Positions 44,830-60,654 of a stretch of DNA of 64,000 nt are shown here, piece by piece (position 1 is the first letter of the stretch; every line of letters begins with the position of its first letter). The DNA is taken from NCBI GenBank assembly GCA_963810475.1, contig CAWENY010000015.1:399-64398 (forward strand), in the 5' to 3' direction. Origin of the DNA: an uncultured beta proteobacterium (GTDB lineage: Bacteria; Pseudomonadota; Gammaproteobacteria; Burkholderiales; SG8-39). A program made the position numbers and the translations under genes. The notes below the pieces were generated by a model. It made no database searches and had not been told where the DNA came from. It was given only the letters and a program-made list of their open reading frames with translations.

Positions 44830-45455
44830 TCGGCGAGGCGAAGCACGTGGCGGTGGGCGCGGCGTCGCCGATCCCGGCGACCGCCTGTGAATTGTTGAAA
44901 GCGCGCGGACAGAATCTGCGCGTCTCCATGCTGCACAAGAGAAAAGGCAATCCGTTTACGGAGGGTTCGCGCGAGTTGTTCGACCTCGCCGGGCAGGGCC
45001 GCATCGATGTGTTCTTCCTCGGCGGCGCGCAGATCGACGGCGAGGGCAGCATCAACCTGGTGCGCGCCGACGGCAAGCGCTTTCCCGGATCGTTCGGCTC
45101 GGCGTTCATGTATCCGGTGGTGAAGAGCACCATCCTCTTCCGGGAAGAGCATTCCCGGCGCGTGCTGGTGCCGAAGGTCGAGTTCGTCTCCGCGCGCGGC
45201 ACGCCGCGCGCGCTCCTCACCGGCAAGGCGCTTTTCTCGTGGCACGGCGGCCGCTTTCGGCTGGAAAGCACGCACCAGACCGGCGACATCCGCGGCGAGA
45301 CCGGGTTCGATTACGACTCGCCAGCCGCGGTGCCGATCACCCCGGCGCCCTCGGCCGACGATCTGGCGCTGTTGCGCAGCAGCGTGGCGAAGCGCATCGC
45401 CGCCGACTATCCCGATTTCGCCAAACGCGTAGTGGGGAATAAACTAGCGCCATGA
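44784..45455 (+). CDS. CoA-transferase subunit B-like
   Basis: TTG 44784 ([31 protein letters not shown]..). VFFLGGAQIDGEGSINLV. The start is tentative and overlaps the 3' end of subunit A. Confidence 0.7.
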   Translation: MHTREELLACVIARLIGEAKHVAVGAASPIPATACELLKARGQNLRVSMLHKRKGNPFTEGSRELFDLAGQGRIDVFFLGGAQIDGEGSINLVRADGKRFPGSFGSAFMYPVVKSTILFREEHSRRVLVPKVEFVSARGTPRALLTGKALFSWHGGRFRLESTHQTGDIRGETGFDYDSPAAVPITPAPSADDLALLRSSVAKRIAADYPDFAKRVVGNKLAP

Positions 45456-46345
45456 ACGCACCCGAGAAGCTCAAGCAATACGACCGCGACGCCCAGGTCG
45501 TCGGCAACATCGTCCACCTCGAGCATTTCAACGTGGTGATCGACGACCAGCGGCTCGCGACCCTCTTCTACGTGGTCGGCCTCGGCGGCACGCGCGACCC
45601 GTACATCTTCCCCGGCCTCGAGAACATGTGGGTCAACTTCGGCCGTACGCAGGTGCACCTGCCGAGCCGCGGCTCGAAGCCCGAGGTGGTGCGCGGCACC
45701 GTGGGCTTCGTGGTGCCGAGCCTCGACGATCTCGTGAAGCGCCTCGAGCATGCCGGCAAGGAGATGAAGCGCGTCGCCCCGGATCTGCCGAATAAATTTT
45801 CCTTCAACAGACAGAAGGACACGGTGGAGGCCACCTGCCCGTGGGGCAACCGCGTGCGCTGCCACGCGCCGTCGCCGGAATTCGGCCGCACCGAGCTCGG
45901 CCTGGTCTACGTCGACTTCGACGTGCCGCCGGGCACCGCCGAAGGCATCGCGCGCTTTTACAACCAGGTCATCAAGGCGCCCGCGCGCTCGGGCAACGGC
46001 AGGGCGAGCGTGAGCGTCGGGCGCAACCAGGCGCTGCACTTCACCGAGACCTCGAAGCCGCTGGCGGAGTACGACAACCACCACATCCAGGTTTACGTCG
46101 CCGACTTCGGCACCCCCTACCACTGGCTGAAGGAACGCGGTCTCATCAACATGGAGACCGACGCCGAGGAATGGCGCTTCCAGTGGATCACCGATCCGAA
46201 GGACGGGAACAAGCTGTTCCAGATCGAGCACGAGGTGCGCAGCATGAAGCACCGCCTGTTCGCCCGGCCGCTGGTCAACCGCAACCACGCCATTACCAAT
46301 ATGACGTACCTGCCGAACGCCGACGCGTTCCGTGGCACGTATTGA
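45452..46345 (+). CDS. conserved hypothetical protein, possibly VOC (glyoxalase/dioxygenase)-fold
   Basis: ATGA overlap with subunit B. Two beta-alpha-beta-like halves with His-containing strands (IVHLEHFNVV; NHHIQVYVADF). The fold assignment is a guess. Confidence 0.55.
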   Translation: MNAPEKLKQYDRDAQVVGNIVHLEHFNVVIDDQRLATLFYVVGLGGTRDPYIFPGLENMWVNFGRTQVHLPSRGSKPEVVRGTVGFVVPSLDDLVKRLEHAGKEMKRVAPDLPNKFSFNRQKDTVEATCPWGNRVRCHAPSPEFGRTELGLVYVDFDVPPGTAEGIARFYNQVIKAPARSGNGRASVSVGRNQALHFTETSKPLAEYDNHHIQVYVADFGTPYHWLKERGLINMETDAEEWRFQWITDPKDGNKLFQIEHEVRSMKHRLFARPLVNRNHAITNMTYLPNADAFRGTY

Positions 46346-46351
46346 GCGGCG

Positions 46352-46900
46352 ATGAAGCGCCTGCTTGTCGGCGCCGCGCTCGTGCTGTGCGCGCAAGCGG
46401 CGGGCGCCGACGAGGTCTCGCTGCGGCTCGGCGGCAAGGAGCTTCCCCTCAGCCCGGCGCTGCGCGAACGGCTCGCCACGCTGGCGCAGGAAACCCTGCG
46501 GCACTGCGGTCCGAACACCGCCCAGCACCCGGGTAATTTCGGCCGCTCGGCGTTCGGCGCCGAGCAGCGCTGGCAGCGGCTGCTCGAGGGCTCGCGTCTG
46601 CGCGTGCGCTTCGCCGAGCCTTTCGTCACCGAGTCGCACCTGGGCGGCACGCGCGGCGTGTCGGAGGCCCTGATCGGCCTGGAGCACGAGGAGCTCTTCG
46701 TCGGCCCGGATTTCACGCGGCACGGCACGGCCATCGTCGAGCACCTGCAATGCGGCTACCTGCCGTCGCTCGAGCTCGCCTGCCTGGCCGAGCTCCAGCC
46801 ACACCTGCCCGCGCGCTACCGCGCGAACCTGCGCCAGGCTGGAGCGCGATGCGAGCGGCCGCATCGTCATGCCGCCGCCGGACATCGCGCCTTCGTGTAG
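46352..46900 (+). CDS. secreted hypothetical protein
   Basis: Signal peptide MKRLLVGAALVLCAQAAGA. 182 aa. No family recognised. Confidence 0.55.
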   Translation: MKRLLVGAALVLCAQAAGADEVSLRLGGKELPLSPALRERLATLAQETLRHCGPNTAQHPGNFGRSAFGAEQRWQRLLEGSRLRVRFAEPFVTESHLGGTRGVSEALIGLEHEELFVGPDFTRHGTAIVEHLQCGYLPSLELACLAELQPHLPARYRANLRQAGARCERPHRHAAAGHRAFV

Positions 46901-47337: not shown

Positions 47338-48588
47338 ATGTCGAGCAATACCAGTCGCAGGAATTTCATTCGCAAGACCGCAGCACTCACCGGAGGTGCC
47401 TTCGCAGCCGCCGGTAGCGCGCGCGCCGCCCCGCTGCCGATCCCGCAGACCAACCAGGAGCCCGGCCGCATCATCGAGGAGACGGCATACGGCATGCCCT
47501 CGAAGTACGAGGCGCACGTCAAGCGCCGGCGCACCGATGTGTTCAAGAACCGGCAGAACCTGTCGGACTGGAGCATGACGCCGCTGCAGCACCAGCCCGG
47601 CATCATCACGCCGAACGGCCTGATCTACGAGCGCCATCATGCCGGTACGCCCGACATCGACCCGCGCACGCACAAGCTCGTGATCCACGGCCTGGTGAAG
47701 CAGCCGCTGGAATTCTCCATGGACGATCTGCACCGCTATCCCTCGGTGTCGCGCTTCTACTTCATGGAGTGCTCGGGCAACGGCCTGACCGATTGGCTCA
47801 AGCCGGCGTCGACCACGGTGCAGCAGACGCACGGCCTGCTCTCGGGCGCGCTGTGGACCGGCGTTCTCATGTCGACACTGCTCGAAGAGGCGGGCATCGA
47901 TCCGAAGGCCAAGTGGGCGCTGCTGGAAGGCGCCGATTCCTCGGCGCACACGCGCTCGGTGCCGATGGAGAAGATGCTCGACGACACGATGATCGTGTAC
48001 GCGATGAACGGCGAGGCGCTGCGCCCGGAGAACGGTTACCCGGTGCGCGCGTTCCTCCCCGGCTGGGAAGGCAACATCTGCGTGAAGTGGCTGCGGCGTA
48101 TCGAGCTGGGCGAGCAGCCCTGGCACTTCCGCAGCGAGACCGCGCGCTACACCGACCCGATGCCGGGCGGCAAGTGGCGCCAGTTCAGCATGGTGATGGA
48201 GACCAAGTCGGTGATCACCAATCCATCGGGCGGCATGAAGATGAAGGGCCCGGGCTTCTACGAGATCACCGGGCTCGCGTGGTCGGGCGCGGGCAAGATC
48301 CGCGCGGTCGACGTCTCGGTCGACGGCGGCAAGAACTGGCGCGAGGCGAAGCTCGAGGAGCCGGTCATGGACAAGTGCCTGACGCGCTTCAAGGCCGCGT
48401 GGAATTGGGACGGCTCGCCCGCCGTGCTGATGAGCCGCGCGGTGGACAGCAACGGCTACGTACAGCCGACGGTGCAGGATCTGCAGAAGAAACGCGCGAT
48501 CGTGGGCTTCGTGCAGCACCACAACGGGATCCAGCCATGGGCGGTATCGGCCAACGGGGAGGTGCGCAATGTCATCGGCCAAGCCTAA
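47338..48588 (+). CDS. soxC: sulfite dehydrogenase molybdopterin subunit (SoxC/SorA type)
   Basis: Tat signal SRRNFIRKTAAL. ITPNGLIYERHHAG, FMECSGNG. GGAGGAGG Shine-Dalgarno sequence upstream. Confidence 0.9.
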   Translation: MSSNTSRRNFIRKTAALTGGAFAAAGSARAAPLPIPQTNQEPGRIIEETAYGMPSKYEAHVKRRRTDVFKNRQNLSDWSMTPLQHQPGIITPNGLIYERHHAGTPDIDPRTHKLVIHGLVKQPLEFSMDDLHRYPSVSRFYFMECSGNGLTDWLKPASTTVQQTHGLLSGALWTGVLMSTLLEEAGIDPKAKWALLEGADSSAHTRSVPMEKMLDDTMIVYAMNGEALRPENGYPVRAFLPGWEGNICVKWLRRIELGEQPWHFRSETARYTDPMPGGKWRQFSMVMETKSVITNPSGGMKMKGPGFYEITGLAWSGAGKIRAVDVSVDGGKNWREAKLEEPVMDKCLTRFKAAWNWDGSPAVLMSRAVDSNGYVQPTVQDLQKKRAIVGFVQHHNGIQPWAVSANGEVRNVIGQA

Positions 48589-49219
48589 GTTTTTCGCGGT
48601 CATCGCCGCGTCCGCGCTGGTCGCCGCTTGCGCCGGCACCGGTGGTAGCAGCGCCCCAGCCAAGACCTCGAACGGCATCTGGATGGGCACTACGGCGCCG
48701 CATCCGGTGCAGCCGCTCGCGGACAAGCCGCGCTTCGGCAAGCCGATCAGCGAGGCCGACCTCGCGGCGTGGAACATCGACATCCGTACGCCCGACGGGC
48801 AGGGCCTGCCCGCGGGCAGCGGAACGGTTTCCCAGGGCCAGCAGGTCTATGCGGCGAAGTGCGCCGCGTGCCATGGCGCCGACGCCAAGGGCGGCGCGGT
48901 CTACGGCACGATGGTCGGCGGCATCGGCTCGATGAACAGCTCGCCGCGCGTGCTCACCCCGGGCAGCATGTACCCGTACGCCCCGATCCTTTTCGACTAC
49001 ATCCGCCGCTCGATGCCGATGGATCGGCCGCAGACCCTGACCAACAATGAGGTGTATGCGCTTTCGGCGTACCTGCTCAACCTGAACGGCCTGGTGCCGG
49101 CCGACGCGGTGATGGACGCGCAAAGCCTGCCGAAGGTGCAGATGCCGAACCGCGCCGCTTTCCTGATCGACGACCGGCCCGATGCGCAGGCGACGCGCTG
49201 CATGGCCAATTGCAAGTGA
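48569..49219 (+). CDS. soxD: c-type cytochrome partner of SoxC (SoxD/SorB-like, monohaem)
   Basis: Single CAACHG haem site. A lipobox-like LVAAC follows the signal sequence. Overlaps the soxC 3' end by 20 nt. Confidence 0.8.
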   Translation: MSSAKPKFFAVIAASALVAACAGTGGSSAPAKTSNGIWMGTTAPHPVQPLADKPRFGKPISEADLAAWNIDIRTPDGQGLPAGSGTVSQGQQVYAAKCAACHGADAKGGAVYGTMVGGIGSMNSSPRVLTPGSMYPYAPILFDYIRRSMPMDRPQTLTNNEVYALSAYLLNLNGLVPADAVMDAQSLPKVQMPNRAAFLIDDRPDAQATRCMANCK

Positions 49220-49300: not shown

Positions 49301-50518
49301 ATGGCCAAATCAGCCGCCGACTGGAACGCACCGCCGAAGTTTCCCGCGACGCACTACGTCGATTCCCGCATCTACACCGATCAATCCATCTTCGACGAGG
49401 AGATGGAGAAGCTGTTCAAGCCGTCGTGGATCATCGCCTGCCACGAATCCGAGATCGCCAATGCGTTCGATTACCGGCTGTTCACGCATCCGAGCGGCGT
49501 GCCGCTGATCATCGTGCGCGGCGACGACATGAACGTGCGCAGCTTCTACAACATCTGTCCGCACCGGGGCAACACCATCCTGTACGACCCGGCGGGCAAC
49601 GCGAAGCGCATGACCTGCATCTTCCACCAGTGGTCGTTCGATGCGCGCGGCAACTGCATCGACATCTCGCGCGCCGAGCAGGGCTATCAGGACCGCTTCT
49701 GCAAGGAGGACGCGGGCCTGCGCGAGGTGAAATGCGAGATCGGCTTCGGCGGCTTCGTCTGGGTCAACCTCGACGACGCCAGCGGCACGCTGAAGGAGTT
49801 CGTCGGTCCGGCGATGGACATCCTGGCGCCGTACATGGTCGAGCCGATGGAGGTGTTCCACTTCAACCGCGCCGTGGTCGACACCAACTACAAGCTCTGG
49901 CACGACACCAACAGCGAGTTCTACCACGACTTCGTGCACTACTTTAATCGCATCACCGGCATGATGCAGCCCGGCTATTACGACCGCAAATACACCGCGT
50001 TCGCGAACGGTCATGCCACCGTCGGTTCGATGCAGATCCAGTACGACAAGTACGAAGGCTCGAAGGCGCGCGCGGTCGGCTGGCCCGGCCTGGCGCCGGG
50101 CGGCTGGTACATGGTGGACCTCTTCCCGGGGATGACTTACAACCTGCGCACCTCGGTGCTGCGCATCGACACCGCCATCCCGCTGGGGCCGAACAAGGTC
50201 GCGATCGAGTTCCGTGGCCTGGGCCTGAAGAGCGATACGCCGGAGCAGCGCGCGCAGCGCATCTTCGACCACAACACGATCTGGGGCCCGTTCGGTCGCA
50301 ACCTGCACGAGGACCTGCTCGCGGTGCACGGCCAGGGCCGCGCGATGCGCGAGCGCACCGGCAGCCGCTGGGTGATCCAGGGTCGCGAAGAGAACAGCAC
50401 GATCCACGACGAGGTCGGCATGCGCCACTTTTACGCAGAGTGGAGCCGGCGCATGGGACGCCCGGCGCACGACCCGTTGCGCGAGAACCGGCCCGCGCCG
50501 GCGCGCGCGGCGGCGTGA
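49301..50518 (+). CDS. Rieske non-haem iron oxygenase, alpha (catalytic) subunit
   Basis: Rieske CPHRG-x..-CIFHQW (CxH-x17-CxxH). Putative mononuclear-iron region YKLWHDTNSEFYHDFVH. AGGAGG Shine-Dalgarno sequence. Confidence 0.9.
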   Translation: MAKSAADWNAPPKFPATHYVDSRIYTDQSIFDEEMEKLFKPSWIIACHESEIANAFDYRLFTHPSGVPLIIVRGDDMNVRSFYNICPHRGNTILYDPAGNAKRMTCIFHQWSFDARGNCIDISRAEQGYQDRFCKEDAGLREVKCEIGFGGFVWVNLDDASGTLKEFVGPAMDILAPYMVEPMEVFHFNRAVVDTNYKLWHDTNSEFYHDFVHYFNRITGMMQPGYYDRKYTAFANGHATVGSMQIQYDKYEGSKARAVGWPGLAPGGWYMVDLFPGMTYNLRTSVLRIDTAIPLGPNKVAIEFRGLGLKSDTPEQRAQRIFDHNTIWGPFGRNLHEDLLAVHGQGRAMRERTGSRWVIQGREENSTIHDEVGMRHFYAEWSRRMGRPAHDPLRENRPAPARAAA

Positions 50519-50526
50519 GCGCGGCC

Positions 50527-50982
50527 ATGGAGCAGCGCCAGCAGATCGAGGAGCTGGTCTACCGCTCGTGCCTCGCGCTCGACGATCGCGACTTCAAGGG
50601 ATTCCTCGCGCTGTGCGATCCGGCATTCCGCTACAAGGTCAGTGCGTACAGCCCGGAGATCCGCAAGGAGATGGTCTGGCTCGACCACGACCGCGCCGGC
50701 ATGGAGACGCTCTTCACCCAGCTGCCGCGGCACAACAGCGACCACTCGCCGCTCACGCGCCACGCCACCGTGTACACCGTCAAGGTGAACGGCACGCAGG
50801 CCGAGGTGGTGTCGGCGCTGCAGGTGTTCCGCACCTCGCTCGACGGCGGCGCCACCGAGCTCTACGGCGTGGCGCGGCTAATCGACACGGTGAAGCTCGA
50901 CGGCGGCAGCCCGAAGCTCGCCAGCCGGGTGGTGCGCATGGAAACGCGCCAGCTCGGCTTCGGCACCCATATCCCGTTCTAG
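50527..50982 (+). CDS. ring-hydroxylating oxygenase beta subunit (NTF2-like)
   Basis: 151 aa. EELVYRSCLALDDRDFKGFLALC pattern of oxygenase small subunits. Lies directly after alpha. Confidence 0.85.
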   Translation: MEQRQQIEELVYRSCLALDDRDFKGFLALCDPAFRYKVSAYSPEIRKEMVWLDHDRAGMETLFTQLPRHNSDHSPLTRHATVYTVKVNGTQAEVVSALQVFRTSLDGGATELYGVARLIDTVKLDGGSPKLASRVVRMETRQLGFGTHIPF

Positions 50983-50996
50983 GGGCCGCCGAGCGC

Positions 50997-52022
50997 ATGC
51001 GCATCCAGGTCAACGCCCGCAACCGCGGCTTCGAGTTCGACGCCGGGCCGGGAGAGCGCGTGCTCTACGCGGGCCTGCGCGCGGGCATCGACCTGCCCTA
51101 CGAGTGCGCCACCGGAACCTGCGGCACGTGCAAGGCCAAGCTGGTCTCGGGCCGGGTGGCCGACCGCTGGCCCGGCGCGCCGGGCAAGAAGTATGTGAAG
51201 CCGCAGGCGGGCGAGTTCCTCATGTGCCAGTGCGCCGCCGAGGAAGCGTTGACCCTCGAAGTCTCCAAATTCGTCTACGCAGTGGAGCCCGGCGCGTGCG
51301 TGCCGCAGACCTGCGCCGGCACTGTGCGCGGCGTGCGCGCGCTTACGCACGACGTCATGGGCTTCGCGCTCGAGCTCGAGCGGCCGCGCGACTTCGATGC
51401 CGGCCAGTTCGCGCTGCTCGCCGCCGACGGCGTAGACGGTTATCGCGCCTACTCGATGTGCAACTACGAGCGCGGCGGCCGCACGCTGGACTTCGTGGTG
51501 AAGCGCAAGCCCGACGGCGGCTTCTCGGACTGGCTGTTCGGCGCCAGCCGCGAAGGCGCCCGCCTGCAAGCGTTCGGGCCGCTCGGCAAGGCGACCTTCG
51601 ATCCCGCGCTGGGCAAGAACCTGCTGTGCATCGCCGGCGGCTCGGGCATCGCCGGCATGATGTCGATCCTGGCCCGCGCCGATGCCGCCGACTATTTTTC
51701 CAGGCATCACGGCCATGTCTTCTTCGGCATCCGGACGATGAAGGATGCTTTCTTCTTCAACGAGCTGAGCAAAACCAAAGCGGCGGTAACGGTGGCGCTT
51801 TCGGATGAGGACGTCTCCGAAAAGGCGGCCCAAGCCTGGCCCTCGTTGAAATTCGAGAAAGGCCTGGTGCACGAGGTGGCAAAGCGCGCGATGGCGGGCA
51901 AGTACCAGAACGTGCGCGCGTACGTGGCCGGCCCGCCGCCGGCGGTGGATGCCGCGATCCGCGTGCTGCTGCTGGACGCGAAGCTCACCACCGACAACAT
52001 CCGCTACGACAAATTCAGCTGA
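50997..52022 (+). CDS. oxygenase reductase: plant-type [2Fe-2S] ferredoxin + FAD/NAD(P)-binding domains
   Basis: YECATGTCGTCKAKL..FLMCQC. FAD motif RAYSMCN. NAD motif LCIAGGSGIAG. Confidence 0.9.
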   Translation: MRIQVNARNRGFEFDAGPGERVLYAGLRAGIDLPYECATGTCGTCKAKLVSGRVADRWPGAPGKKYVKPQAGEFLMCQCAAEEALTLEVSKFVYAVEPGACVPQTCAGTVRGVRALTHDVMGFALELERPRDFDAGQFALLAADGVDGYRAYSMCNYERGGRTLDFVVKRKPDGGFSDWLFGASREGARLQAFGPLGKATFDPALGKNLLCIAGGSGIAGMMSILARADAADYFSRHHGHVFFGIRTMKDAFFFNELSKTKAAVTVALSDEDVSEKAAQAWPSLKFEKGLVHEVAKRAMAGKYQNVRAYVAGPPPAVDAAIRVLLLDAKLTTDNIRYDKFS

Positions 52023-52753
52023 TGGGCAAGCGCATGGTCTGCCGCGTCGCCGACGTTCCCGAGAATTCCCTCAAGGAGTGCGAAGCCGACGGCGGGCTGA
52101 AGCTGGTGGTGGCGAACGCCGGCGGCGAGTTCGTCGGCTTCCAGGCCATGTGCCCGCACCAGGACGTTCCGCTTTGCGAGGGCCTGTTCGACGGCCAGAC
52201 GCTCACCTGCCACATGCACCTGTGGCAATGGGACGTGCGTACCGGCGCGCCGCTCGGCATCGCCGAGGCGCCGCTGCAGCGCTATGCGCTCGCGCGCGAG
52301 GGCGACGCGATCTATCTCGGCGGCGAGTCGAGCGCGCTCGACGTCGGCGAGCTCTTCAATGGACTGAATTCGTCGATCCTCGAGAAGCTGTCGGCGCTCG
52401 CGCGGCGGGAAAGCCACCCGGCGGGCGCGGTGCTCTACAAGCCGGGCGATCCGGCCGACGACCTGTACGTGCTCGATTCCGGCCGCGTCGAGTTCCTGGT
52501 GGGGCGCGGCGACCGCGCCGCGCCGGGCGGTTTCATGCTGAAGAAGGGCGAGGTGTTCGGCTGGGCGGCGCTGCTCGAAGGCTATGCGGCGCGCATCGCG
52601 AGCGCCCGCTGCCTGGAGGATGCTGTGCTCCTCAGAATCAACGGCAAGGCCGCGCTGCGGGTCCTGGAAAGCGACCCGGCGTCGGGTTTTGCCGTAATGC
52701 GTCGGCTGGCCGCGCTCATCGCGCGTTATCTGGCCACATCGGGGGCGAAATGA
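52022..52753 (+). CDS. Rieske-type ferredoxin fused to a C-terminal cNMP-binding-like domain
   Basis: N-terminal ~105 aa with CPHQDVPLC..CHMHLWQW. The C-terminal ~135 aa have a CAP-effector-like beta-roll (VLYKPGDPADDLYVLDSGRVEFLV..GEVFGWAALL..RIASARCLEDAVLLRI). No stop or start codon at the junction. Confidence 0.85.
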   Translation: MGKRMVCRVADVPENSLKECEADGGLKLVVANAGGEFVGFQAMCPHQDVPLCEGLFDGQTLTCHMHLWQWDVRTGAPLGIAEAPLQRYALAREGDAIYLGGESSALDVGELFNGLNSSILEKLSALARRESHPAGAVLYKPGDPADDLYVLDSGRVEFLVGRGDRAAPGGFMLKKGEVFGWAALLEGYAARIASARCLEDAVLLRINGKAALRVLESDPASGFAVMRRLAALIARYLATSGAK

Positions 52754-53835
52754 AACGAATCTTGGTGCTGTTGGCAATGCTGGGGATGGGCAGTGCGGGG
52801 GCGCAGCCCGTCAAGCTCGTGGTCGGGTACCAGCCGTACGACACGATTTCCTACTCGGCGGTGGTGATCCGCGCCCTCGATCTGTGGAAGAAGCACCTCC
52901 CGCCGGGCAGCGAGGTCGAGTTCCAGAACGCGCTGCAGGGCTCGATCATCGTCAACAACATGCTCGCCAACAAGCAGCAGATCGGCTACCTCGGCGACAT
53001 GCCGGCGGTGGTCGCCACGACCAAAAGGAGCGTGGCGCCGGTCAACCTGGTAGCGAACACCGGCTTCTCGCCCGGGCAGCGCTGCAACGTAATCATGGTC
53101 CGTGCCGACGCGCCGAAGTTCAAGTCGCCCGAAGAGGCGGTCAAGTGGCTGGACGGCAAGCAGCTTGCCACGCCGCAGGGCAGCTGCGCGCACCGCTTCC
53201 TCGGCCTGGTGATCGAGCGCACCAAGATCAAGCCCGCGGCGATCCTCAACCAGTCGATCGAGGTGATCGCCACCAACCTGCGCCAAGGCAAGATCGACGG
53301 CGCGGTCCTGTGGGAGCCTTCGGTGTCGCGCATCGGGGACATCGTCGGCGAAGGCTCGGGGCGCATCGTCGCCACGGGCCACACCTTCGGCATCCCGGAC
53401 GCCGGCGCGATCGCGATGCGCGAAGACTTCATGAAGAGCCGGCCGGATCTAGTCGAAGCGTGGCTGAAGATCGAGCTCGAGGCGCAGCAGTACGTGCTCG
53501 ATCCGAAGAACTGGACCAAGGTCGCCGAGTTCGTGAAGAGCCAGACGGCCGGCATCAGCGTGCCGATGGCGTGGTTCTCGATCTACGGGCAGATCCCGGC
53601 TTCGGCCGGCGGCAGCCCGATCCGCGACGAAAAGCCGTTCGTGTTCGACCCCCGCGTCCAGAAGCTGCTCGCGGAGACCTACGTCTATCTGCACCAGGCG
53701 AAGGCGATTGACGTCGACAAGCCGGCGCCCGGCGCGCTCGACGATTCCATCGCGCGCAAGGTGGCGCAGGCCGCGAAGGTGGCGCTGCCGCTCGGCGTGA
53801 TCAAGGCGCAGGATGTTTCCCGGATGCCCAAGTAG
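52750..53835 (+). CDS. NitT/TauT-family (NMT1/SsuA-like) periplasmic substrate-binding protein 1
   Basis: Sec signal MKRILVLLAMLGMGSAGA. LVVGYQPY..IIVNNMLANKQQIGYLGDMPAVVATTK. ATGA overlap with the upstream gene. Confidence 0.85.
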   Translation: MKRILVLLAMLGMGSAGAQPVKLVVGYQPYDTISYSAVVIRALDLWKKHLPPGSEVEFQNALQGSIIVNNMLANKQQIGYLGDMPAVVATTKRSVAPVNLVANTGFSPGQRCNVIMVRADAPKFKSPEEAVKWLDGKQLATPQGSCAHRFLGLVIERTKIKPAAILNQSIEVIATNLRQGKIDGAVLWEPSVSRIGDIVGEGSGRIVATGHTFGIPDAGAIAMREDFMKSRPDLVEAWLKIELEAQQYVLDPKNWTKVAEFVKSQTAGISVPMAWFSIYGQIPASAGGSPIRDEKPFVFDPRVQKLLAETYVYLHQAKAIDVDKPAPGALDDSIARKVAQAAKVALPLGVIKAQDVSRMPK

Positions 53836-53861: not shown

Positions 53862-54977
53862 ATGAACAGGCGGCATTTCATCGCAGCGGCAAGTCTGATC
53901 ACAGCGGCGGCGTCGCTGAGCGGCGTGGCACTCGCGCAGGACTACGGCAAGCCCGGCGGGCCGGTCAATCTGGTGGTCGGCTACCAGCCGTATTACACGC
54001 AGTCGTGGTCCGGCGTGGTGATGCGCGGCAAGAAGTTCTACGAGAAGTACCTGCCGAAGGGCTCGAACGTCGAGTTCCAGATCGGCCTGCAGGGCGCGAT
54101 CATCGTCAACAACATGCTCGCCGGGAAGCAGCACGTCGGCTACATGGGCGACATGCCCTCGATCGTGGCGACCACCAAGACCGAAGTGGCCGATGTGCGC
54201 CTGGTCGCCAACCTCGGCCTCGCCTACGACCAGTGCAACGCCTTCCTGGTGCGCAACGACGCGCCGCAGTTCAAGAGCGACCAGGAAGCGATCCGCTGGC
54301 TGGCCGGCAAGACCGTGGCGGTGCCCAAGGGAAGCTGCACCGACCGCTTCGCGCAGGCGACCTTCAAGCGCTTCAACATCCAGCCCAAGGAGTACCTGAA
54401 CCAGAACATCGAGGTGATCACGTCCAATTTCCGCGCCGGCAAGCTCGACGCCGCGGTGATGTGGCAGCCGACCACCTCGCGCCTGGTGGACGAGGGCCTG
54501 GCGCGCCTGATCGCGACCGGCAAGAGCGTGCAGGAGAACGACGGCGGCTTCCTTGCGATGCGCGCGGACCTGATCAAGGCGCGGCCCGACGTGGTCAAGG
54601 CCTGGCTGCAGGCCGAGCTCGACGCGCAGCTCTTCATCGCCGACCCGAAGAACGCGGCCGAGGTGATCAAGATGGCGAAGGAGCAGACCACCGGCTTCTC
54701 GGAGAAGGTGCTGTGGAACTCGCTCTACGGCCGCTATCCCGACAGCGCCGGCGGCGGCGAGATGCGCAACACCATGCACTACACCTTCACGCCCGAGACG
54801 CGCGAGCTTATCAACCGGGCCGCCACCTTCCTGCACTCGATCAAGAGCATCAACACCGAGAAGATCCGGCCCGAGGCAATCGAGTCGAAGTGGACCGAGG
54901 AGATCCTGAAGGAGCGCGGCCTCAAGGCGCCGATCGCCGAGGTGAAGGCGCTGCCGGCCTCGCAGGCGCCGAAGTAG
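53862..54977 (+). CDS. NitT/TauT-family periplasmic substrate-binding protein 2 (paralog, Tat-type signal)
   Basis: MNRRHFIAAASLITAAASL twin-arginine-like signal. LVVGYQPYYTQ..IIVNNMLAGKQHVGYMGDMPSIVATTK parallels protein 1. GAGGAGG Shine-Dalgarno sequence. Confidence 0.85.
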   Translation: MNRRHFIAAASLITAAASLSGVALAQDYGKPGGPVNLVVGYQPYYTQSWSGVVMRGKKFYEKYLPKGSNVEFQIGLQGAIIVNNMLAGKQHVGYMGDMPSIVATTKTEVADVRLVANLGLAYDQCNAFLVRNDAPQFKSDQEAIRWLAGKTVAVPKGSCTDRFAQATFKRFNIQPKEYLNQNIEVITSNFRAGKLDAAVMWQPTTSRLVDEGLARLIATGKSVQENDGGFLAMRADLIKARPDVVKAWLQAELDAQLFIADPKNAAEVIKMAKEQTTGFSEKVLWNSLYGRYPDSAGGGEMRNTMHYTFTPETRELINRAATFLHSIKSINTEKIRPEAIESKWTEEILKERGLKAPIAEVKALPASQAPK

Positions 54978-56321
54978 ATGGAGGCTGCCGCAACCGCCAA
55001 CGGGGCGGATGACGGGAAGATAGCGCTGCTGCGCGAGACCACGCCGTTCGGAGACGCCTCCGGGGCGTTCCTCGCGCGCATCGCGGCGATCGCGCGCCCG
55101 GCGCGCTACGGCGCCGGCAAGCGCATCTACAGTGCTGGCGATGCGGCGGAGGACATCTTCATCGTCGTCTCGGGCCGCGTCGACCATGTGTTCGCGCCCG
55201 AGGTGGGTGCGCACGACCCGCTCAAGCGCATGACGCGTGGCGGCGTGTTCGGCTGGGCCGGGCTGCTGCTGGGGCAGACGAAGCGCCTCGCCACGGTCAC
55301 CGCGGCCGAGCCGACGGAGGTGCTGCGCCTCGACACCGAGGCGCTGGTCGCGCTGCTCGAGTCCGAGCCGCTCGAGGGCGGGCGGGTGATGGAGCGCTTC
55401 GTCGGCATGATCCAGCGCGAGTTCGCGCTGCCGAAGATGCTGGCGCAGGTGCGGCGGCTTTCCGGGCCGCTCACCGAGGAGATGTCGAGGACCGCCCTGA
55501 CGATGTACCGCGCCTCGCTCTGGCTGAAGAGCCCGCGGCCCTACCTGATGCTGATCGGCTTCGCGCTGGTGCTGGGCTTCTGGTACCTCGCGGTCGAGGT
55601 CTGGAAGCTGCCGCGCTTCCGCGAGATGCCGGGGATCACCACGGTGGTGAAGGAATGGGTCTCGCCCAACCCGACCTACGGGCTGTCGCTTTATACGGAG
55701 GAGTATTACCAGCACATCCTGGTGTCGATCTGGCGAGTGACCAAGGCCTTCCTGCTCGCCACCGTGCTCGGCGTGGCCTTCGGCCTGCTGCTCGGCTGGT
55801 CGCGGGTGTTCAAGGAATACGTGTTCCCGGTGTTCGAGATGCTGCGACCGATCCCGATCCTCGCCTGGGTGCCGCTCGCCATCGTGATGTTCATCGCCAC
55901 CGAGTCGGCGGTGGTGTTCCTCGCCTTCCTCGCCTCGTTCTTCGCCACCGCGCTCAACACCATGCTCGGCGTCGAGTCGATCGACGAGTCCTACATCCGG
56001 GCGGCGCACTGCCTCGGCGCGGACCGCTGGCAGGTGTTCCGCCACGTGATCATCCCGGGCTCGCTGCCGTTCATCTTCACCGGCCTGCAGATCTCGATCG
56101 GCGTGTCGTGGTTCTCGCTGGTCGCGGCCGAGATGGTGTCCGGCCAGTACGGCCTGGGCTATGTCATCAACACCTCCTACGTGATGGTGCGCTACCCGAC
56201 GATCGTGATCGGCATGATCACGCTCGGCATCGTCGGCTACATCACCAGCGCCATGGTGCGCGTGGCCGGCGACTACATGATGGAGTGGCGCGTGCGGGAA
56301 CTCGCGCTCTCTGACCGATGA
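54978..56321 (+). CDS. ABC transporter permease (NitT/TauT family) with N-terminal cNMP-binding-like domain
   Basis: aa ~20-150: RIYSAGDAAEDIFIVVSGRVDHVF..GGVFGWAGLLLGQTKRLATVTA. aa ~170-447: BPD-transporter permease (FEMLRPIPILAWVPLAIVMF, AAHCLGADRWQVFRHVIIPGSLPFIFTGLQISIG). Confidence 0.85.
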   Translation: MEAAATANGADDGKIALLRETTPFGDASGAFLARIAAIARPARYGAGKRIYSAGDAAEDIFIVVSGRVDHVFAPEVGAHDPLKRMTRGGVFGWAGLLLGQTKRLATVTAAEPTEVLRLDTEALVALLESEPLEGGRVMERFVGMIQREFALPKMLAQVRRLSGPLTEEMSRTALTMYRASLWLKSPRPYLMLIGFALVLGFWYLAVEVWKLPRFREMPGITTVVKEWVSPNPTYGLSLYTEEYYQHILVSIWRVTKAFLLATVLGVAFGLLLGWSRVFKEYVFPVFEMLRPIPILAWVPLAIVMFIATESAVVFLAFLASFFATALNTMLGVESIDESYIRAAHCLGADRWQVFRHVIIPGSLPFIFTGLQISIGVSWFSLVAAEMVSGQYGLGYVINTSYVMVRYPTIVIGMITLGIVGYITSAMVRVAGDYMMEWRVRELALSDR

Positions 56322-57140
56322 GCCGAGGACAGATTTCGATTCAGGACGTGGTGAAGGTTTACGATCCCGAGGGGGCGGCGGTGATGGCGGTCGACCACTG
56401 CTCGCTCGACATCGAGGGCGGCGAGATCTGCATGATCGTCGGGCCTTCCGGCTGCGGCAAGACGACCTTGCTCAACGCGATCGCCGGCTTCCACGAGATC
56501 ACCTCGGGCCGCATCACCATGGACGGCGAGGTGCTCTGCTCGGCGGACAAGCCGAAGTCGGAGCCCGGCCCGGACCGCATCGTGGTGTTCCAGAACGGCG
56601 CGCTGTTTCCCGTGGAAATCGAACCTGGAGAACGTGATCTTCGGCCCGATGATGCAGGGCAAGCTCGATCGCAAGGCGGCGATCGAGAAGGGGCGCGCGA
56701 TGATGGCCGACGCCGGCCTGTCGGGCGTGGAGCACAACTATCCCGGCGAAGTGTCCTCGGGCATGCGCCGGCGCGTCGAGATCGTGCGCGCGCTGATGAA
56801 CGACCCGAAGGTCCTGCTGCTGGACGAGCCCTACCGCGCGCTCGACTCGCTCACCAAGAGCGTGATGCACGAGGCGCTGCTCGAGATCTACTACAAGAAC
56901 AAGGTCACCATCTTCTTCATCACGCACGACCTGGAGGAGGCCATCTTCCTCGGCCACCGCGTCGCCATCATGACCACGCGGCCGTGCAAGCCGAAGAAGG
57001 TGCTGAGCGTCGACATCCCGCATCCGCGCGACTACAGCGTGCTGACCTCGAAGCGCTTCCGCGAGCTGATCGAGGAGACCAACGACGCCGTGCACGAGGA
57101 GGCCCTGAAGGCTTTCCAGGCCGGAGAGAAAGAAGGATGA
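56318..57140 (+). pseudogene. ABC transporter ATP-binding protein (NitT/TauT family), one frameshift as read
   Basis: Walker A GPSGCGKTT and VVFQNGALFP in frame 1. After an extra G near 56612 the rest continues in frame 2: (W)KSNLENVIFGP..SSGMRRRVEIVRAL..LLLDEPYRALD..ITHDLEEA. Confidence 0.8.
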
Positions 57141-57200: not shown

Positions 57201-58001
57201 GTGCTGTGGGAAATTGGCGCGCGCTCCAAGGCCTGGATGGCGCCGGAGTTCTTCGCGCCGTTCAAGGAGCTGCTCGTGGCGATGGGGTTCAAGAAGGACT
57301 ATCTGCCGTGGATCGGCGCGGTGCCCGCGCCCTCGGGAGTGCTCAAGGCCTGGGTCGCGGTGCTCGCCGAGCCGGGCTACTGGCAGAGCTGGTACATGAG
57401 CATGTTCCGCGTGCTGGGCGGGTTCGTCGCCGCGATGATCATCGGCATCCCGTTCGGCCTGATGCTGGCGGTGAGCCGCGTCGCGTACGGCATCGGCTTC
57501 CCGGCCTTCGAGGTGCTGCGGCCGATCCCGCCGCTGGCATGGGTGCCGGCCTCGATCATCTTCTGGCCGACGCAGGAGCTCGCCATCATCTTCATCACCT
57601 TCCTCGGCGCGTTCTACACCATCGTCATCAACGTGCTCGGCGGCGCGCGCTCGATCGACGGGCGCTACTTCCTTGCCGCGCAGTCGATGGGCTCCTCGAA
57701 TTGGGACATCTTCCGGCGCGTGATCCTGCCCGGCACGCTGCCGTCCATCGTGGTGGGCTCGGCGGTCGGCATGGGCATCACCTGGGAAGTGGTGGTCGCG
57801 GCGGAGATGATCTCCGGCGGCGGCAGCCAGCAGGCCGGCGTCGGCGGCGGGCTGGGCTTCTTCATCTGGAACTCCTACGTCGGCGGCTCCTATGAGCAGA
57901 TCGTCGTCGGCATGATCTCGATCGGCATTGCCGGCTTTGCCTCCAGCGAGCTGCTGCGCTGGGGCGGCCGCTACGCGACCCCATGGCTGAAATTACGCTA
58001 A
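57201..58001 (+). CDS. ABC transporter permease (NitT/TauT family); true start probably ATG 57137 across a frameshift
   Basis: FEVLRPIPPLAWVPASIIFWP, AAQSMGSSNWDIFRRVILPGTLPSIVVGSAVG. ATG 57137 (MKKVPVEP, ATGA overlap with the ATPase stop) joins the permease frame (AFWRGAASIVIFLVLWEIG) if one C of the C4 run at 57158-57161 is removed. Confidence 0.8.
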   Translation: MLWEIGARSKAWMAPEFFAPFKELLVAMGFKKDYLPWIGAVPAPSGVLKAWVAVLAEPGYWQSWYMSMFRVLGGFVAAMIIGIPFGLMLAVSRVAYGIGFPAFEVLRPIPPLAWVPASIIFWPTQELAIIFITFLGAFYTIVINVLGGARSIDGRYFLAAQSMGSSNWDIFRRVILPGTLPSIVVGSAVGMGITWEVVVAAEMISGGGSQQAGVGGGLGFFIWNSYVGGSYEQIVVGMISIGIAGFASSELLRWGGRYATPWLKLR

Positions 58002-58852
58002 GACCAAAAATCATTCCTGGCGAGATCTCCGTCCAGGGCGTGAGCAAGTCGTACGGCGCAACCCAGTTCCGCAAGGAAGTGGTGCACGACTGCTCGTTCA
58101 CGATCGAGCGCTCGAAGCTCACCGTCATGGTCGGCCCCTCGGGCTGCGGCAAGAGCACCCTGATTCGGCTGCTCGCCGGCTTCGAGCAACCCACCACCGG
58201 CAAGATCCTCCTCGACGGTGCGCCGGTCGCGGAGCCGAGCCGGGACCGGCTGGTGGTATTCCAGGAAACCGCGCTGTTTCCCTGGATGACCACGTGGGAC
58301 AACATCCTTTACGGCCCGCGCGCGCGCGGCGAACTCACGCGCGAAAGCTTCGCCTTCGGCGAATTCCTCCTCAACAAGGTCGGCCTGCAGGAATTCCGCG
58401 ACAAGTACCCGGGCCAGCTTTCCGGCGGCATGCAGCGCCGCGCCGAGCTTGCCCGCGCCATGATCAACAACCCCAAGGTCATGATCCTCGACGAGCCGTT
58501 CCGCGGCCTCGACGCCATGACCAAGGAGCTGATGTGGGAGTACTACTCCAGGCTGTATGAAGAGAACCGGCGCACCAATTTCTTCGTCACCACGGACATC
58601 GACGAGGCGGTGTTCCTCGCCGACCGGATCCTCGTTATGTCCAACATCCCGACCCAGGTGCGCGCCACCATCGAGGTCGACCTGCCGCGGCCGCGCAAGC
58701 TGCTCGACATCTTCGAGAACGACCGCGCCAACGACATCAAGAAGCAGGCGCTCTCCATCCTGCACGCCGAGGCGATGCGCTCGTTCTCGCGCGGCTCCAA
58801 GGCCGCCGCCGACTTCGTCGACGCCTACCTCAAGCGCTCCAGCGGCGCCTGA
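57983..58852 (+). CDS. ABC transporter ATP-binding protein (NitT/TauT family), second copy
   Basis: GPSGCGKST, VVFQETALFPWMTTWDNILYG, LSGGMQRRAELARAM, ILDEPFRGLD. Confidence 0.9.
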   Translation: MAEITLRPKIIPGEISVQGVSKSYGATQFRKEVVHDCSFTIERSKLTVMVGPSGCGKSTLIRLLAGFEQPTTGKILLDGAPVAEPSRDRLVVFQETALFPWMTTWDNILYGPRARGELTRESFAFGEFLLNKVGLQEFRDKYPGQLSGGMQRRAELARAMINNPKVMILDEPFRGLDAMTKELMWEYYSRLYEENRRTNFFVTTDIDEAVFLADRILVMSNIPTQVRATIEVDLPRPRKLLDIFENDRANDIKKQALSILHAEAMRSFSRGSKAAADFVDAYLKRSSGA

Positions 58853-59932: not shown

Positions 59933-60654
59933 AGGGTACGAAGGAGCAGCAGGCCGCCGGTCGCGACGCAGAGAAGGCCGGCGAGCCGCCGCAGGACGAG
60001 CGCACTCGCGACGTGGGCCAGGCGCACGCCCGCGACCACGCCCAGCAGCTCGAACAGCGTGATCACGGCCGCCGTATTCCAGTCGATGAACCCATGGCGA
60101 TAGTTCTCGACCGACCCCGAGGTGGCAGCGACGATCTGCAGCACCTGGCTGGTGGCGACCGCGGTGAGCGGGGCATAGCGCAGGATCACCATCAGCGGCA
60201 CCGAGAACAGCGGCCCGCCGGCGCCCGAGAATCCAGAGCCGAAGCCCGAGGCCGCGCCGACGCCGGCAAGGAGCCATGTCTCGCCGGACGCGCGCCCCTC
60301 GCGCGGCTTTACCGGGAAAAGGACGTAGATGCCGGCGCTAACGATGATGAGGGCGATGAAGATGGCAAGCGGCCGGGCGTCAATCACCGCCGCCACCGCC
60401 GCGCCGAAGAAGCCGAAGACAAGGGCGGCGGCGCACACGGGGATGGAGATGCGCCAGTCGATGCTGCCGCGGCGCTGGTAGAGGAACGTGCCGAGGATGC
60501 CGGTGAAGAGGAAGCTGAAAAGCGACGTGGCGGCAGCCTGATGGATGCTCAGGCCTCCGAACAGCGCCAGGAACGAAACCATCAGCACGCCGCCGACGCC
60601 CACCGTGCCGATGAGCAGTCCGACGAGCGACGCCACCGCCGCCACAGCCACCAA
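59929..60654 (-). CDS. TauE/SafE-family sulfite exporter-like membrane protein
   Basis: 241 aa, about 7-8 TM. GLLIGTVGVGGVLMV..AAATSLF and GAASGFGSGFSGAGGPLFSVPLM repeats are typical of DUF81/TauE. Confidence 0.9.
   Translation of the reverse strand: MVAVAAVASLVGLLIGTVGVGGVLMVSFLALFGGLSIHQAAATSLFSFLFTGILGTFLYQRRGSIDWRISIPVCAAALVFGFFGAAVAAVIDARPLAIFIALIIVSAGIYVLFPVKPREGRASGETWLLAGVGAASGFGSGFSGAGGPLFSVPLMVILRYAPLTAVATSQVLQIVAATSGSVENYRHGFIDWNTAAVITLFELLGVVAGVRLAHVASALVLRRLAGLLCVATGGLLLLRTL

Follow-up and report, generated by a model that had tools for sequence, protein, structure and literature searches.

Gene cluster and identity of the oxygenase

A gene cluster encoding a four-component Rieske oxygenase, a sulfonate-type ABC importer and several proteins for the handling of sulfite and C1 units lies in a 64,000-nucleotide stretch of DNA (hereafter the window) from an uncultured beta proteobacterium of the Burkholderiales. 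The features of the cluster are listed in Table 1. The genes of the oxygenase alpha subunit, beta subunit, reductase and ferredoxin follow one another in this order at nearly all of 74 loci. The ferredoxin gene encodes a Rieske domain fused to a domain of the cyclic-nucleotide-binding (CNB) type. The binding proteins and permeases of the importer are similar to SsuA, TauA and TauC.

Table 1. Features of the window (positions count from its first letter; aa, amino acid residues)
Feature	Position	Strand	Basis or remark
SorA/SoxC-type molybdopterin sulfite dehydrogenase	47338-48588	+	synteny
Cytochrome c	48569-49219	+	adjoins sulfite dehydrogenase; synteny
Rieske oxygenase alpha subunit, MsmA-like, short-spacer (CPH-X17-CIFH)	49301-50518	+	Pfam Rieske and Ring_hydroxyl_A
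Oxygenase beta subunit, MsmB-like	50521-50982	+	Pfam Ring_hydroxyl_B/SnoaL_4; synteny
Reductase, plant-type Fer2 + FAD + NAD (MsmD/BenC/MmoC-like)	50985-52022	+	
Rieske ferredoxin-CNB fusion, 243 aa	52022-52753	+	single ORF; orthologues known
Rieske [2Fe-2S] ferredoxin domain, aa 1-100	52022-52321	+	PF00355; T4moC match; fold
Predicted cluster-ligand codons	C44 52151-52153; H46 52157-52159; C63 52208-52210; H66 52217-52219	+	
Interdomain linker, aa 101-112 (..GGESSALDVGEL)	52322-52357	+	pLDDT; alignment; dN/dS
CNB beta-roll plus C-helix, aa 113-243	52358-52750	+	PF00027; fold; pocket alignment
Pocket motif G176-E-V-F-G-W181-A...R191-I-A-S	W181 52562-52564; R191 52592-52594	+	
Periplasmic binding protein 1, SsuA/TauA family, MsmE-like	52750-53835	+	
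Periplasmic binding protein 2, SsuA/TauA family, MsmE-like	53862-54977	+	
ABC permease with N-terminal CNB (aa ~25-150), P group	54978-56321	+	Pfam; hydropathy
ABC ATPase, MsmG-like	56318-57140	+	split by erroneous 1-nt insertion at 56606-56612
Second importer permease (57201-58001) and second ATPase (57983-58852)	57201-58852	+	
GcvT-like folate-binding protein	~59045-59935	-	operon in >20 loci
TauE/SafE sulfite exporter	59929-60654	-	operon in >20 loci
Free CNB protein, 151 aa, S group	60672-61127	-	FGW...RIA pocket
PanB-like hydroxymethyltransferase (C1 transfer)	61102-61992	-	

The four components of an MsmABCD system (alpha and beta subunits, ferredoxin and reductase) are present, and an msmEFGH-type importer and genes for sulfite and C1 handling are linked to them. 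The cluster resembles the Msm systems of Methylosulfonomonas, Marinosulfonomonas and Filomicrobium in its four-component oxygenase with an adjacent sulfonate-type importer and in its neighbouring genes for a sulfite exporter, a SoxCD/SorAB-like dehydrogenase, a GcvT-like protein and a PanB-like protein. The msmABCD/EFGH genes of Filomicrobium are flanked by the same accessory gene set (PMC4433239). The gene order differs, being A-B-D-C in the window and A-B-C-D in the known Msm clusters. The CNB domains on the ferredoxin and permease and the free CNB gene are further differences, as they are unlisted for the Filomicrobium cluster. The fusion gene is the MsmC equivalent in this conserved msmABCD/EFGH-like cluster.

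The alpha subunit carries the automatic, KO-based JGI name 'methanesulfonate monooxygenase large subunit'. All proven oxidisers of methanesulfonate (MSA) possess an MsmA with a 26-residue Rieske spacer, CXH-X26-CXXH (PMC4433239), whereas the spacer is 17 residues long in the window and in all 63 intact orthologues. The alpha subunit was rejected as a bona fide MsmA on account of this X17 spacer. It belongs instead to the MSA-monooxygenase-like proteins of the unproven short-spacer class, which is without experimental support (PMC4433239); a literature search on carriers of the short spacer returned no functional data.

Rieske half of the fusion protein

The Rieske motif of the fusion protein is C44-P-H46-X16-C63-H-M-H66, and the cluster ligands are unchanged in alignments of 41 and of 138 orthologues. 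In both sequence and fold this half is nearest to T4moC, TodB, BphF and CarAc. The nearest PDB sequence is T4moC (1vm9, E = 2.4e-14), and Foldseek superimposed the modelled domain on T4moC (1vm9) and TodB (3dqy) with a TMt of 0.85 and an rmsd of 1.6-2.0 Å. The AlphaFold2 (AF2) model of residues 11-100 has a pLDDT mostly above 90. The first-pass annotation of the N-terminal half as a Rieske ferredoxin is confirmed, and these matches assign it to the T4moC/TodB type. Its proposed role as electron shuttle of the adjacent oxygenase is likely, because synteny with the alpha and beta subunits and the Fer2-FAD-NAD reductase is near-universal.

The fusion shares the CXH...CXXH ligands, the Rieske fold and the adjoining oxygenase and reductase genes with T4moC, TodB, BphF, CarAc and MsmC. 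These known ferredoxins are bare, single-domain proteins of 105-125 residues, in agreement with the earlier statement that oxygenase ferredoxins normally lack additional domains, whereas the fusion has 243 residues and a C-terminal CNB domain. T4moC and TodB contain 106-112 residues, and MsmC is a 16 kDa protein of about 125 residues (PMC4433239). Among the loci, a bare ferredoxin (113 residues) was found only in L073. No PDB chain spanning both halves was retrieved by Foldseek (TMq ≤0.50), and no description of a Rieske-CNB fusion was found in the literature search.

Reading frame, conservation and expression of the fusion

The reading frame is open throughout, and its first in-frame stop is codon 244, in accordance with the single uninterrupted 243-codon ORF originally described. 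The ATG overlaps the stop codon of the reductase gene (TGATG) and the stop codon overlaps the start of the binding protein gene (ATGA), which suggests translational coupling. Pfam matches were obtained for Rieske (PF00355) at residues 5-80 (E = 7e-14, 51.9 bits, cutoff 20.3) and for cNMP_binding (PF00027) at residues 130-218 (E = 1.8e-14, 53.9 bits, cutoff 27.5). The domain boundaries first assigned, 1-105 and 110-243, need slight adjustment. The ferredoxin is complete, but its fold ends at about residue 100 in the structure model; the second part is a confidently folded beta-roll plus C-helix that starts at about residue 110-113.

A fusion of this kind could be an artefact, in which an overlooked stop codon or a frameshift makes two separate genes look like one; alternatively, its CNB half could be a decaying, functionless remnant. 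At least one assembly indel does occur in the window, in the ATPase gene, and the L073 ferredoxin is a natural variant without the CNB domain. Several independent results contradict this explanation. The junction contains no stop and no ATG, GTG or TTG, exactly as first noted: none occurs in frame from codon 72 to V137, which sits within the beta-roll, and a separate CNB gene would have no start codon. The unbroken ORF is present in 74 GTDB species genomes, which were obtained with many assemblers and technologies, at 43-92% identity. Its cultured carriers include Pelomicrobium sp. G1 (L046) and a Usitatibacter isolate. Both domains occur together in more than 120 clusters of 90% identity (241-244 residues), and a further 119 clusters surround one divergent fusion member, giving more than 240 protein clusters in total. 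In the search of representatives, the full architecture corresponded to just one 50%-identity cluster (P0121). The more distant candidates P0167, P0231, P0244 and P0185 were rejected as tandem Rieske repeats.

Logan DNA contigs from independent soil and rhizosphere studies span the fusion with 0 gaps and no inserted or omitted letters; those crossing the junction are X6 (52169-52734), X2 (52280-52575) and X1 (52287-52450). The junction is also spanned without an indel by the metatranscriptome contigs X26 (52241-52372), X28 (52241-52392) and X30 (52198-52346). The same contig method served as its own positive control, since all independent contigs are one base shorter than the assembly at 56606-56612. 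The earlier concern that the assembly is prone to indels thus holds for the nearby ATPase gene but not for the fusion gene.

The dN/dS values are 0.185 for the Rieske half, 0.215 for the CNB half and 0.34, the highest of the three, for the linker. Purifying selection acts on the two halves with similar strength. Residues Y139, R162, E177, W181 and R191 are invariant or almost so among orthologues of 50-92% identity. The near-invariance of these residues, the low dN/dS and a pLDDT above 90 over most of the CNB half indicate that this domain is functional and not vestigial. The fusion is confirmed as a genuine, conserved and expressed gene of soil bacteria, and its interpretation as an artefact or remnant is effectively refuted.

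Linker and structure model

The AF2 model was built on a mixed alignment of 138 sequences; a model from a shallow alignment (80-92% identity) was discarded (pLDDT 65, pTM 0.43). The pLDDT falls to about 50 at residues 101-110 and the overall pTM is 0.58. The CNB domain is therefore predicted to be tethered flexibly, by about 12 residues, and not rigidly to the ferredoxin. The length of the linker differs by one residue in the alignment of locus-derived orthologues. The AF2 model contains no confident interdomain interface, so that the structure offers no clue to the way in which the CNB domain would act on the Rieske docking face.

Predicted ligand pocket of the CNB domain

The CNB half has the beta-roll plus C-helix fold of CRP, GlxR and 3mdp (Foldseek TMt of 0.83 for 3mdp; probability of 1.00 for GlxR and CRP). 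The fusion differs from CRP/FNR regulators in having no DNA-binding domain. The protein 3mdp (Gmet_1532), the nearest CNB in sequence and fold, has neither the Trp nor the Arg of the FGW...R pocket and therefore belongs to a different subfamily; it was rejected as a guide to the ligand. Other sequence or fold matches include the Bd1971 cNMP-EAL phosphodiesterase, the mycobacterial Pat acetyltransferase and the family 2B encapsulin shell. These proteins resemble the fusion in carrying a CNB domain on a non-transcriptional effector for small-molecule control, but they do not function in electron transfer. The characterized CNB enzymes have canonical cAMP pockets (e.g., FGEMAL...RSAS in Bd1971), from which the fusion differs.

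Three groups of CNB domains are encoded in the cluster, on the ferredoxin (F), on the permease (P) and as the free protein (S). Identity between the groups is just 30-37%, but the motif G-x-V-F-G-W-A...R-[IL]-A-[TS] is common to all of them and aligns column for column with G71-E72...R82-S83 of CRP. The CRP numbering is to be taken as a lead only. In CRP, E72 binds the ribose 2'-OH and R82 is the phosphate-binding Arg.

One possible ligand is a canonical second messenger. The CNB domain would then bind cAMP, cGMP or another nucleotide messenger, and the electron supply of the oxygenase and the importer would follow the global carbon or energy status of the cell and not a metabolite of the pathway. 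The Pfam score above threshold, the closeness of the fold to the cAMP-binding GlxR, CRP and Clr, a phosphate-binding cassette equal in length to that of CRP, and the retention of R191 (at least 90% conserved; R82 in CRP) and the invariant A193 are consistent with such a ligand. The ribose-binding side of the pocket argues the opposite. The Gly-Glu of the canonical motif is replaced by G180-W181, with an invariant Trp at the position of E72, and the Ser/Thr after the Arg by Ile or Leu (I192 in the fusion) in all three groups. The positions of S62 and V49 of CRP are occupied by invariant Phe, and alignment with Bd1971 gave the same Glu-to-Trp and Ser-to-Ile columns. Among 150 representatives, the only bearers of the FGW motif are the ferredoxin fusion, the permease fusions and short CNB proteins that stand alone, whereas long multi-CNB proteins retain GE...R[ST]A; this canonical form occurs in other homologues of the same search, but never in the FGW subfamily. 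As aligned, the pocket departs from a canonical cyclic-nucleotide site: an invariant Trp stands in for the ribose-binding Glu, and the phosphate-binding Arg is kept. A second messenger is quite unlikely to be the ligand. Since one invariant pocket variant is found in all three groups, they probably bind a common, non-canonical ligand.

CNB paralogues and distribution of the modules

The permease of the P group matches cNMP_binding (E = 2.4e-15) and BPD_transp_1 in Pfam, and its CNB domain precedes the first transmembrane segment (residues 188-209 by hydropathy). This CNB-permease occurs in 49 loci. The gene of the S group lies in an operon with the order PanB-like, CNB, TauE, GcvT-like that is kept in more than 20 loci. 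With CNB domains borne by both the ferredoxin and the ABC permease and a free copy beside TauE, any control exerted by these paralogues is probably pathway-wide and not specific to the ferredoxin. The CNB-permease may be compared in its mode of action with the trans-inhibited importers MetNI (C2 domain) and ModBC, in that a cytoplasmic ligand-binding domain could throttle uptake in response to the metabolite level inside the cell. The regulatory domain of MetNI and ModBC is located on the ATPase and does not have the CNB fold, whereas the putative regulatory domain of the P permease is an N-terminal CNB on one of two permeases. The literature searches for CNB with a sulfonate ABC permease and for MSA with CNB found nothing relevant.

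The occurrence of three CNB paralogues in one cluster might instead reflect a ligand-independent scaffold. According to this explanation, the CNB domain would dimerize or dock through its C-helix, as CRP does in its dimers, and would thereby assemble a membrane-proximal metabolon for import and oxidation or simply raise the local concentration of ferredoxin. The ferredoxin could be joined in this way to a second copy of itself, to the CNB of the permease or to the free CNB protein. The C-helix motif VM-RL---I is common to the three groups, a flexible tether suits recruitment, and the importer has two different permeases of which one bears a CNB, leaving that CNB without a symmetric partner. 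The distribution of the fusions does not fit an obligate heteromeric pair, however. The ferredoxin fusion accompanies a CNB-less permease in L001, L014, L015, L019 and L020, and L073 combines its bare ferredoxin with a CNB-permease; an obligate heterodimer of the ferredoxin and permease CNB domains was down-weighted on the basis of this independent variation. In addition, the most conserved residues are those of the pocket (G176-E-x-F-G-W and R191-I-A) and not of the helix surface alone. A ligand-independent scaffold is therefore considered unlikely.

The existence of both types of cluster suggests that the CNB modules act autonomously. Since the L073 system apparently persists with a ferredoxin that lacks the CNB domain, the effect of this domain would be modulatory at most.

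Proposed mechanism of ligand-gated electron supply

The best explanation of these observations, to which we give an even chance, is a C1-sulfonate oxygenase with a ligand-gated ferredoxin, in which one class of CNB ligand is shared across the pathway. The oxygenase would split an organosulfonate, of the C1 type or otherwise small, into sulfite and formaldehyde. Electrons would pass from NADH via FAD and the plant-type [2Fe-2S] cluster of the reductase to the Rieske cluster of the fusion, and from there to the Rieske cluster and Fe of the alpha subunit. The CNB domain would bind a small cytoplasmic ligand, and the C-helix and tether would transmit the ligand state and alter the efficiency of the ferredoxin as a shuttle from the reductase to the oxygenase. 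This could occur by fold-back onto, or release of, the Rieske docking face or by a change in oligomeric state. Electron supply would thereby be matched to the level of a metabolite, and gating would limit uncoupled turnover of NADH and O2 and the formation of excess toxic sulfite and formaldehyde. Import, through trans-regulation of the permease, and electron supply would probably respond to the same ligand class, and sulfite export might do so as well.

Allosteric control of the electron flow by the CNB domain is plausible, and the copies of this domain on the importer and beside the sulfite exporter suggest that a small molecule may directly control flux through the pathway. The C-terminus of Rieske ferredoxins is generally distal to the cluster, so that simple steric occlusion by the CNB domain is less obvious. 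A two-component histidine kinase/response regulator pair adjoins the cluster and could supply all of the required regulation transcriptionally.

A small anion of the pathway, either the sulfonate substrate or sulfite, is somewhat more likely to be the ligand than cAMP or cGMP. The retained Arg fits the phosphate of a cyclic nucleotide equally well. A more specific version of ligand gating, which is possible but doubtful, is that the FGW...R CNB senses no cyclic nucleotide but is a receptor for a small sulfur oxyanion (the substrate sulfonate or sulfite) in a purely post-translational, pathway-wide allosteric circuit. In that case no ligand-gated ferredoxin of a Rieske oxygenase system would have been described before the fusion, and the throttling of electron supply would keep pace with uptake and with the export of product.

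Implications

Control of Rieske oxygenases is thought to operate mainly through gene expression and substrate-gated activation of O2 at the oxygenase, and the ferredoxins are regarded as passive carriers of electrons. A conserved and selected sensor domain on the ferredoxin would place a control point on electron supply, which is relevant to the avoidance of uncoupling and reactive oxygen species in Rieske oxygenases and to the engineering of biocatalytic Rieske systems. The presence of one pocket on the ferredoxin, the ABC permease and the TauE-adjacent protein offers a testable case in which a single module would coordinate import, oxidation and export. The findings also bear on the interpretation of organosulfonate (MSA-type) turnover by abundant uncultured soil Burkholderiales, in which the cluster is widely distributed and transcribed. 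They single out the short-spacer MsmA-like oxygenases as a coherent, uncharacterized family with regulatory equipment of its own.

Structure of the ferredoxin fusion gene

The oxygenase ferredoxin of the cluster, equivalent to MsmC, is encoded as a fusion with a cNMP-binding-type (CNB) domain and is designated here Fdx-CNB. The first-pass annotation had described one unbroken frame with an N-terminal Rieske ferredoxin, a C-terminal cNMP-binding-like beta-roll plus C-helix, and a junction devoid of start codons; frame reading, Pfam, the ligand motif and structure comparison bore out this description. The Rieske [2Fe-2S] domain (aa 5-80, E = 7e-14) and the cNMP_binding domain (aa 130-218, E = 1.8e-14) score far over the curated Pfam cut-offs, and the Rieske ligands are C44-P-H46-X16-C63-H-M-H66. 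No in-frame ATG, GTG or TTG occurs between codon 72 and V137, which already lies within the beta-roll; the junction therefore offers no start for a second gene. Start and stop codons overlap those of the flanking genes: TGATG joins the reductase stop to the start of Fdx-CNB, and ATGA joins the stop of Fdx-CNB to the start of the binding-protein gene that follows, an arrangement typical of a translationally coupled operon.

Features of the Fdx-CNB gene cluster in the window
Feature	Position	Strand	Description
Glyoxalase/VOC-superfamily protein (297 aa) and 182-aa protein	45452-46900	+	182-aa protein with hydrophobic N-terminus, zero Pfam matches
Rieske ferredoxin-CNB gene	52022..52753	+	single open frame, 243 codons, both domains by Pfam
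ABC permease with N-terminal CNB	54978..56321	+	CNB E = 2.4e-15, before first transmembrane segment
msmG-like ABC ATPase	56318-57140	+	two frames, split by one-base insertion at 56606-56612
Free CNB protein, 151 aa	60672..61127	-	operon PanB-like, CNB, TauE, GcvT-like
Histidine kinase and response regulator	62075-63339	-	kinase small, soluble, 239 aa (HisKA and HATPase)
ORF resembling GcvT-family aminomethyltransferase at its beginning	63367-63879	+	last ~40 residues look out-of-frame

An AF2 run on a shallow alignment failed and was set aside. The model built on 138 sequences (50-92% identity) has a mean pLDDT of 86.4, with both domains, including the C-terminal half, mostly above 90, the linker (aa 101-110) near 50 and a pTM of only 0.58. 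The protein is therefore predicted to consist of two well-folded domains on a flexible tether, without a confident mutual orientation. By Foldseek, the N-terminal half resembles T4moC, TodB and CarAc (TMt 0.82-0.85, rmsd 1.6-2.1 A), and the C-terminal half resembles Gmet_1532, a standalone CNB protein (3mdp, TMt 0.83), as well as the sensor domains of GlxR, CRP, Clr and DNR; sequence searches concur for both halves. No PDB chain spanning both halves was found by Foldseek (TMq <=0.50).

Fdx-CNB contains, and works like, a ferredoxin of the T4moC/TodB/MsmC kind but is not a single-domain protein. Canonical MsmC is bare (16 kDa, ~125 aa; PMC4433239), as the first-pass annotation had held for oxygenase ferredoxins in general. 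Public records name the protein only generically, as 'cyclic nucleotide-binding domain-containing protein', 'Rieske 2Fe-2S domain-containing protein' or 'toluene monooxygenase system ferredoxin subunit'. A literature search turned up neither a Rieske ferredoxin-CNB fusion nor a sulfonate importer bearing a CNB domain.

Occurrence and conservation of the fusion

Four lines of evidence establish that the fusion is real. Among 5.8 billion proteins searched, over 120 clusters of 241-244 aa combine both domains (80-92% identity); they come from assemblies of JGI, ENA, Logan and NCBI. The most divergent intact orthologue, used as query, gave 119 further two-domain proteins. The same ORF occurs in 74 genomes (43-92% identity; one genome scanned per GTDB species), from both long-read and short-read assemblies. 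These belong mostly to uncultured Burkholderiales-type lineages (Usitatibacteraceae, Casimicrobiaceae); other carriers are Thioalkalivibrio, Caldimonas and Methylibium MAGs and the isolate Pelomicrobium sp. G1. Across 41 aligned orthologues (50-92% identity) the junction is continuous, with length differences of at most one residue. Independent soil and rhizosphere metagenome contigs span it with zero indels, and contigs from three metatranscriptome studies span it as well.

The adjacent ABC ATPase gene served as positive control for the contig test. Its inserted base is absent from every independent contig and from three orthologous loci, so the split is an assembly error in the window and a pseudogene is rejected. 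The earlier description of the assembly as indel-prone thus holds for the ATPase gene but not for the Fdx-CNB gene, which is free of indels. The apparent frame break in the GcvT-like ORF may be a further assembly indel.

Median dN/dS is 0.185 for aa 1-100 and 0.215 for aa 113-243 (136 orthologue pairs), and 0.34 for the linker (131 pairs); purifying selection on the Rieske and CNB halves is of similar strength. The identity of the gene and the reality of the fusion are practically certain, and a fusion artefact or a vestigial CNB domain is scarcely credible.

Three CNB modules with one pocket variant

Two further CNB domains are encoded in the cluster. The permease belongs to the NitT/TauT family (TauC/SsuC/SaoP-like), carries the same FGW...R pocket as Fdx-CNB and keeps this architecture in 49 loci. 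It may represent a trans-regulated importer of a kind not found described. The free CNB gene shares 26 nt with the PanB-like gene and is separated from TauE by 18 nt, and its operon is kept in more than 20 loci.

Across loci, 68 ferredoxin, 49 permease and 22 free CNB domains were gathered. Identity is 56-67% within groups and only 30-37% between them, which indicates old paralogues rather than recent copies; the ferredoxin group is slightly nearer the free group. The motif G-x-V-F-G-W-A...R-[IL]-A-[TS] is invariant in all three and matches the phosphate-binding cassette of CRP column for column (numbering from what we take to be the CRP reference sequence). Trp is invariant in the column of the ribose-binding Glu (E72), the Arg that binds phosphate (R82) and the next Ala are kept, Ser83 is replaced by Ile or Leu, and Phe is invariant at the positions of the contacts S62 and V49. 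The same substitutions appear when HMMER aligns the domain with the cAMP-type domain of Bd1971 (FGEMAL...RSAS). Among 150 representative homologues, FGW...R occurs only in short standalone CNB proteins, one permease fusion and the Fdx-CNB family; long multi-CNB proteins retain GE...R[ST]A. Because the variant is conserved, with Arg kept and Glu replaced by Trp, the pocket is predicted to be anion-competent but not canonical for cyclic nucleotides. Canonical cNMP control, which the PF00027 domain would suggest, is improbable, since the Gly-Glu and Arg-Ser/Thr signature is missing. A ligand-independent scaffold or dimerisation role of the CNB domain is rather doubtful.

Natural variants separate the two fusions. 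Locus L073 (9539-10430) encodes a bare 113-aa Rieske ferredoxin ending in ...YLGDEATAPGIGEALS, with the stop exactly at the usual CNB junction; its permease still carries a CNB domain, and the reductase gene is absent between beta subunit and ferredoxin. In contrast, L001 (the closest relative, 92% identity), L014, L015, L019 and L020 keep Fdx-CNB and have a permease of ~291 aa without CNB. The two fusions are therefore independent modules, which argues against an obligate ferredoxin-permease CNB pair and in favour of each CNB acting on its own carrier protein. The five loci (L001 10729-13907) seem to have exchanged their importer module, whereas their oxygenase module is still 92-98% identical to that of the window. 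Directly 3' of Fdx-CNB they have an additional gene for a polytopic membrane protein of 338 aa, and their binding protein is divergent (53% identity).

Gene cluster and oxygenase class

The neighbourhood, conserved over the 74 loci, often opens with a sulfite dehydrogenase of SorA type and a cytochrome c, followed by Rieske oxygenase alpha and beta subunits, a Fer2-FAD-NAD reductase, Fdx-CNB, one or two SsuA/TauA-type binding proteins, permease, ATPase, second permease and second ATPase. The operon encoding PanB-like protein, free CNB, TauE sulfite exporter and GcvT-like protein lies downstream on the other strand. The histidine kinase/response regulator pair beyond it is kept in many loci and likely provides transcriptional control of the cluster. 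The glyoxalase/VOC gene and the gene of the 182-aa protein lie 5' of the sulfite dehydrogenase and are kept in L001, L005, L014, L015, L019 and L020.

JGI KO-based annotation names the alpha subunit 'methanesulfonate monooxygenase large subunit'. In Filomicrobium, TauE, GcvT, PanB-like and SoxCD-like genes adjoin msmABCD/msmEFGH (PMC4433239), and the window cluster has the same accessory genes. From its gene content, a small sulfonate would be imported and its C-S bond cleaved oxygenolytically to give sulfite and a C1 unit; the sulfite would then be oxidised or exported and the C1 unit captured by folate-linked enzymes. However, all organisms proven to oxidise methanesulfonate (MSA) have a spacer of 26 residues in the MsmA Rieske motif, and 17-residue 'MsmA' annotations (Methylibium, Methyloversatilis, Thiobacillus) are regarded as unproven (PMC4433239). 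The spacer is 17 residues in the window alpha subunit and in 63/63 intact orthologues. The system resembles MSA monooxygenase but fails this signature; it is therefore named MSA-monooxygenase-like, short-spacer class, and MSA monooxygenase proper is rejected.

A second alpha/beta pair, ~57-58% identical to that of the window, lies a few kb 3' of the transporter in L054 (11537-13228), L058 (17351-19057, - strand) and L066 (17769-19455). No ferredoxin or reductase gene was detected beside it in the stretch examined, and it might share the Fdx-CNB shuttle.

Proposed role of the fusion

Electrons would most likely pass from NADH through the FAD and plant-type [2Fe-2S] cluster of the reductase to the Rieske cluster of Fdx-CNB, and then to the Rieske cluster and mononuclear Fe of the alpha subunit. 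Ligand-dependent gating by the CNB domain is put at roughly an even chance. With its retained Arg and many aromatic residues, the pocket would suit a small anion of the pathway, either the sulfonate substrate or sulfite, somewhat better than cAMP or cGMP. Binding of such a putative ligand would reposition the C-helix and tether and alter productive shuttling of the Rieske domain. Electron supply would thereby be tuned to metabolite level, with less uncoupled turnover and less overproduction of sulfite and formaldehyde, and the sister CNB domains would bring this signal to bear on uptake and possibly on the export of sulfite.
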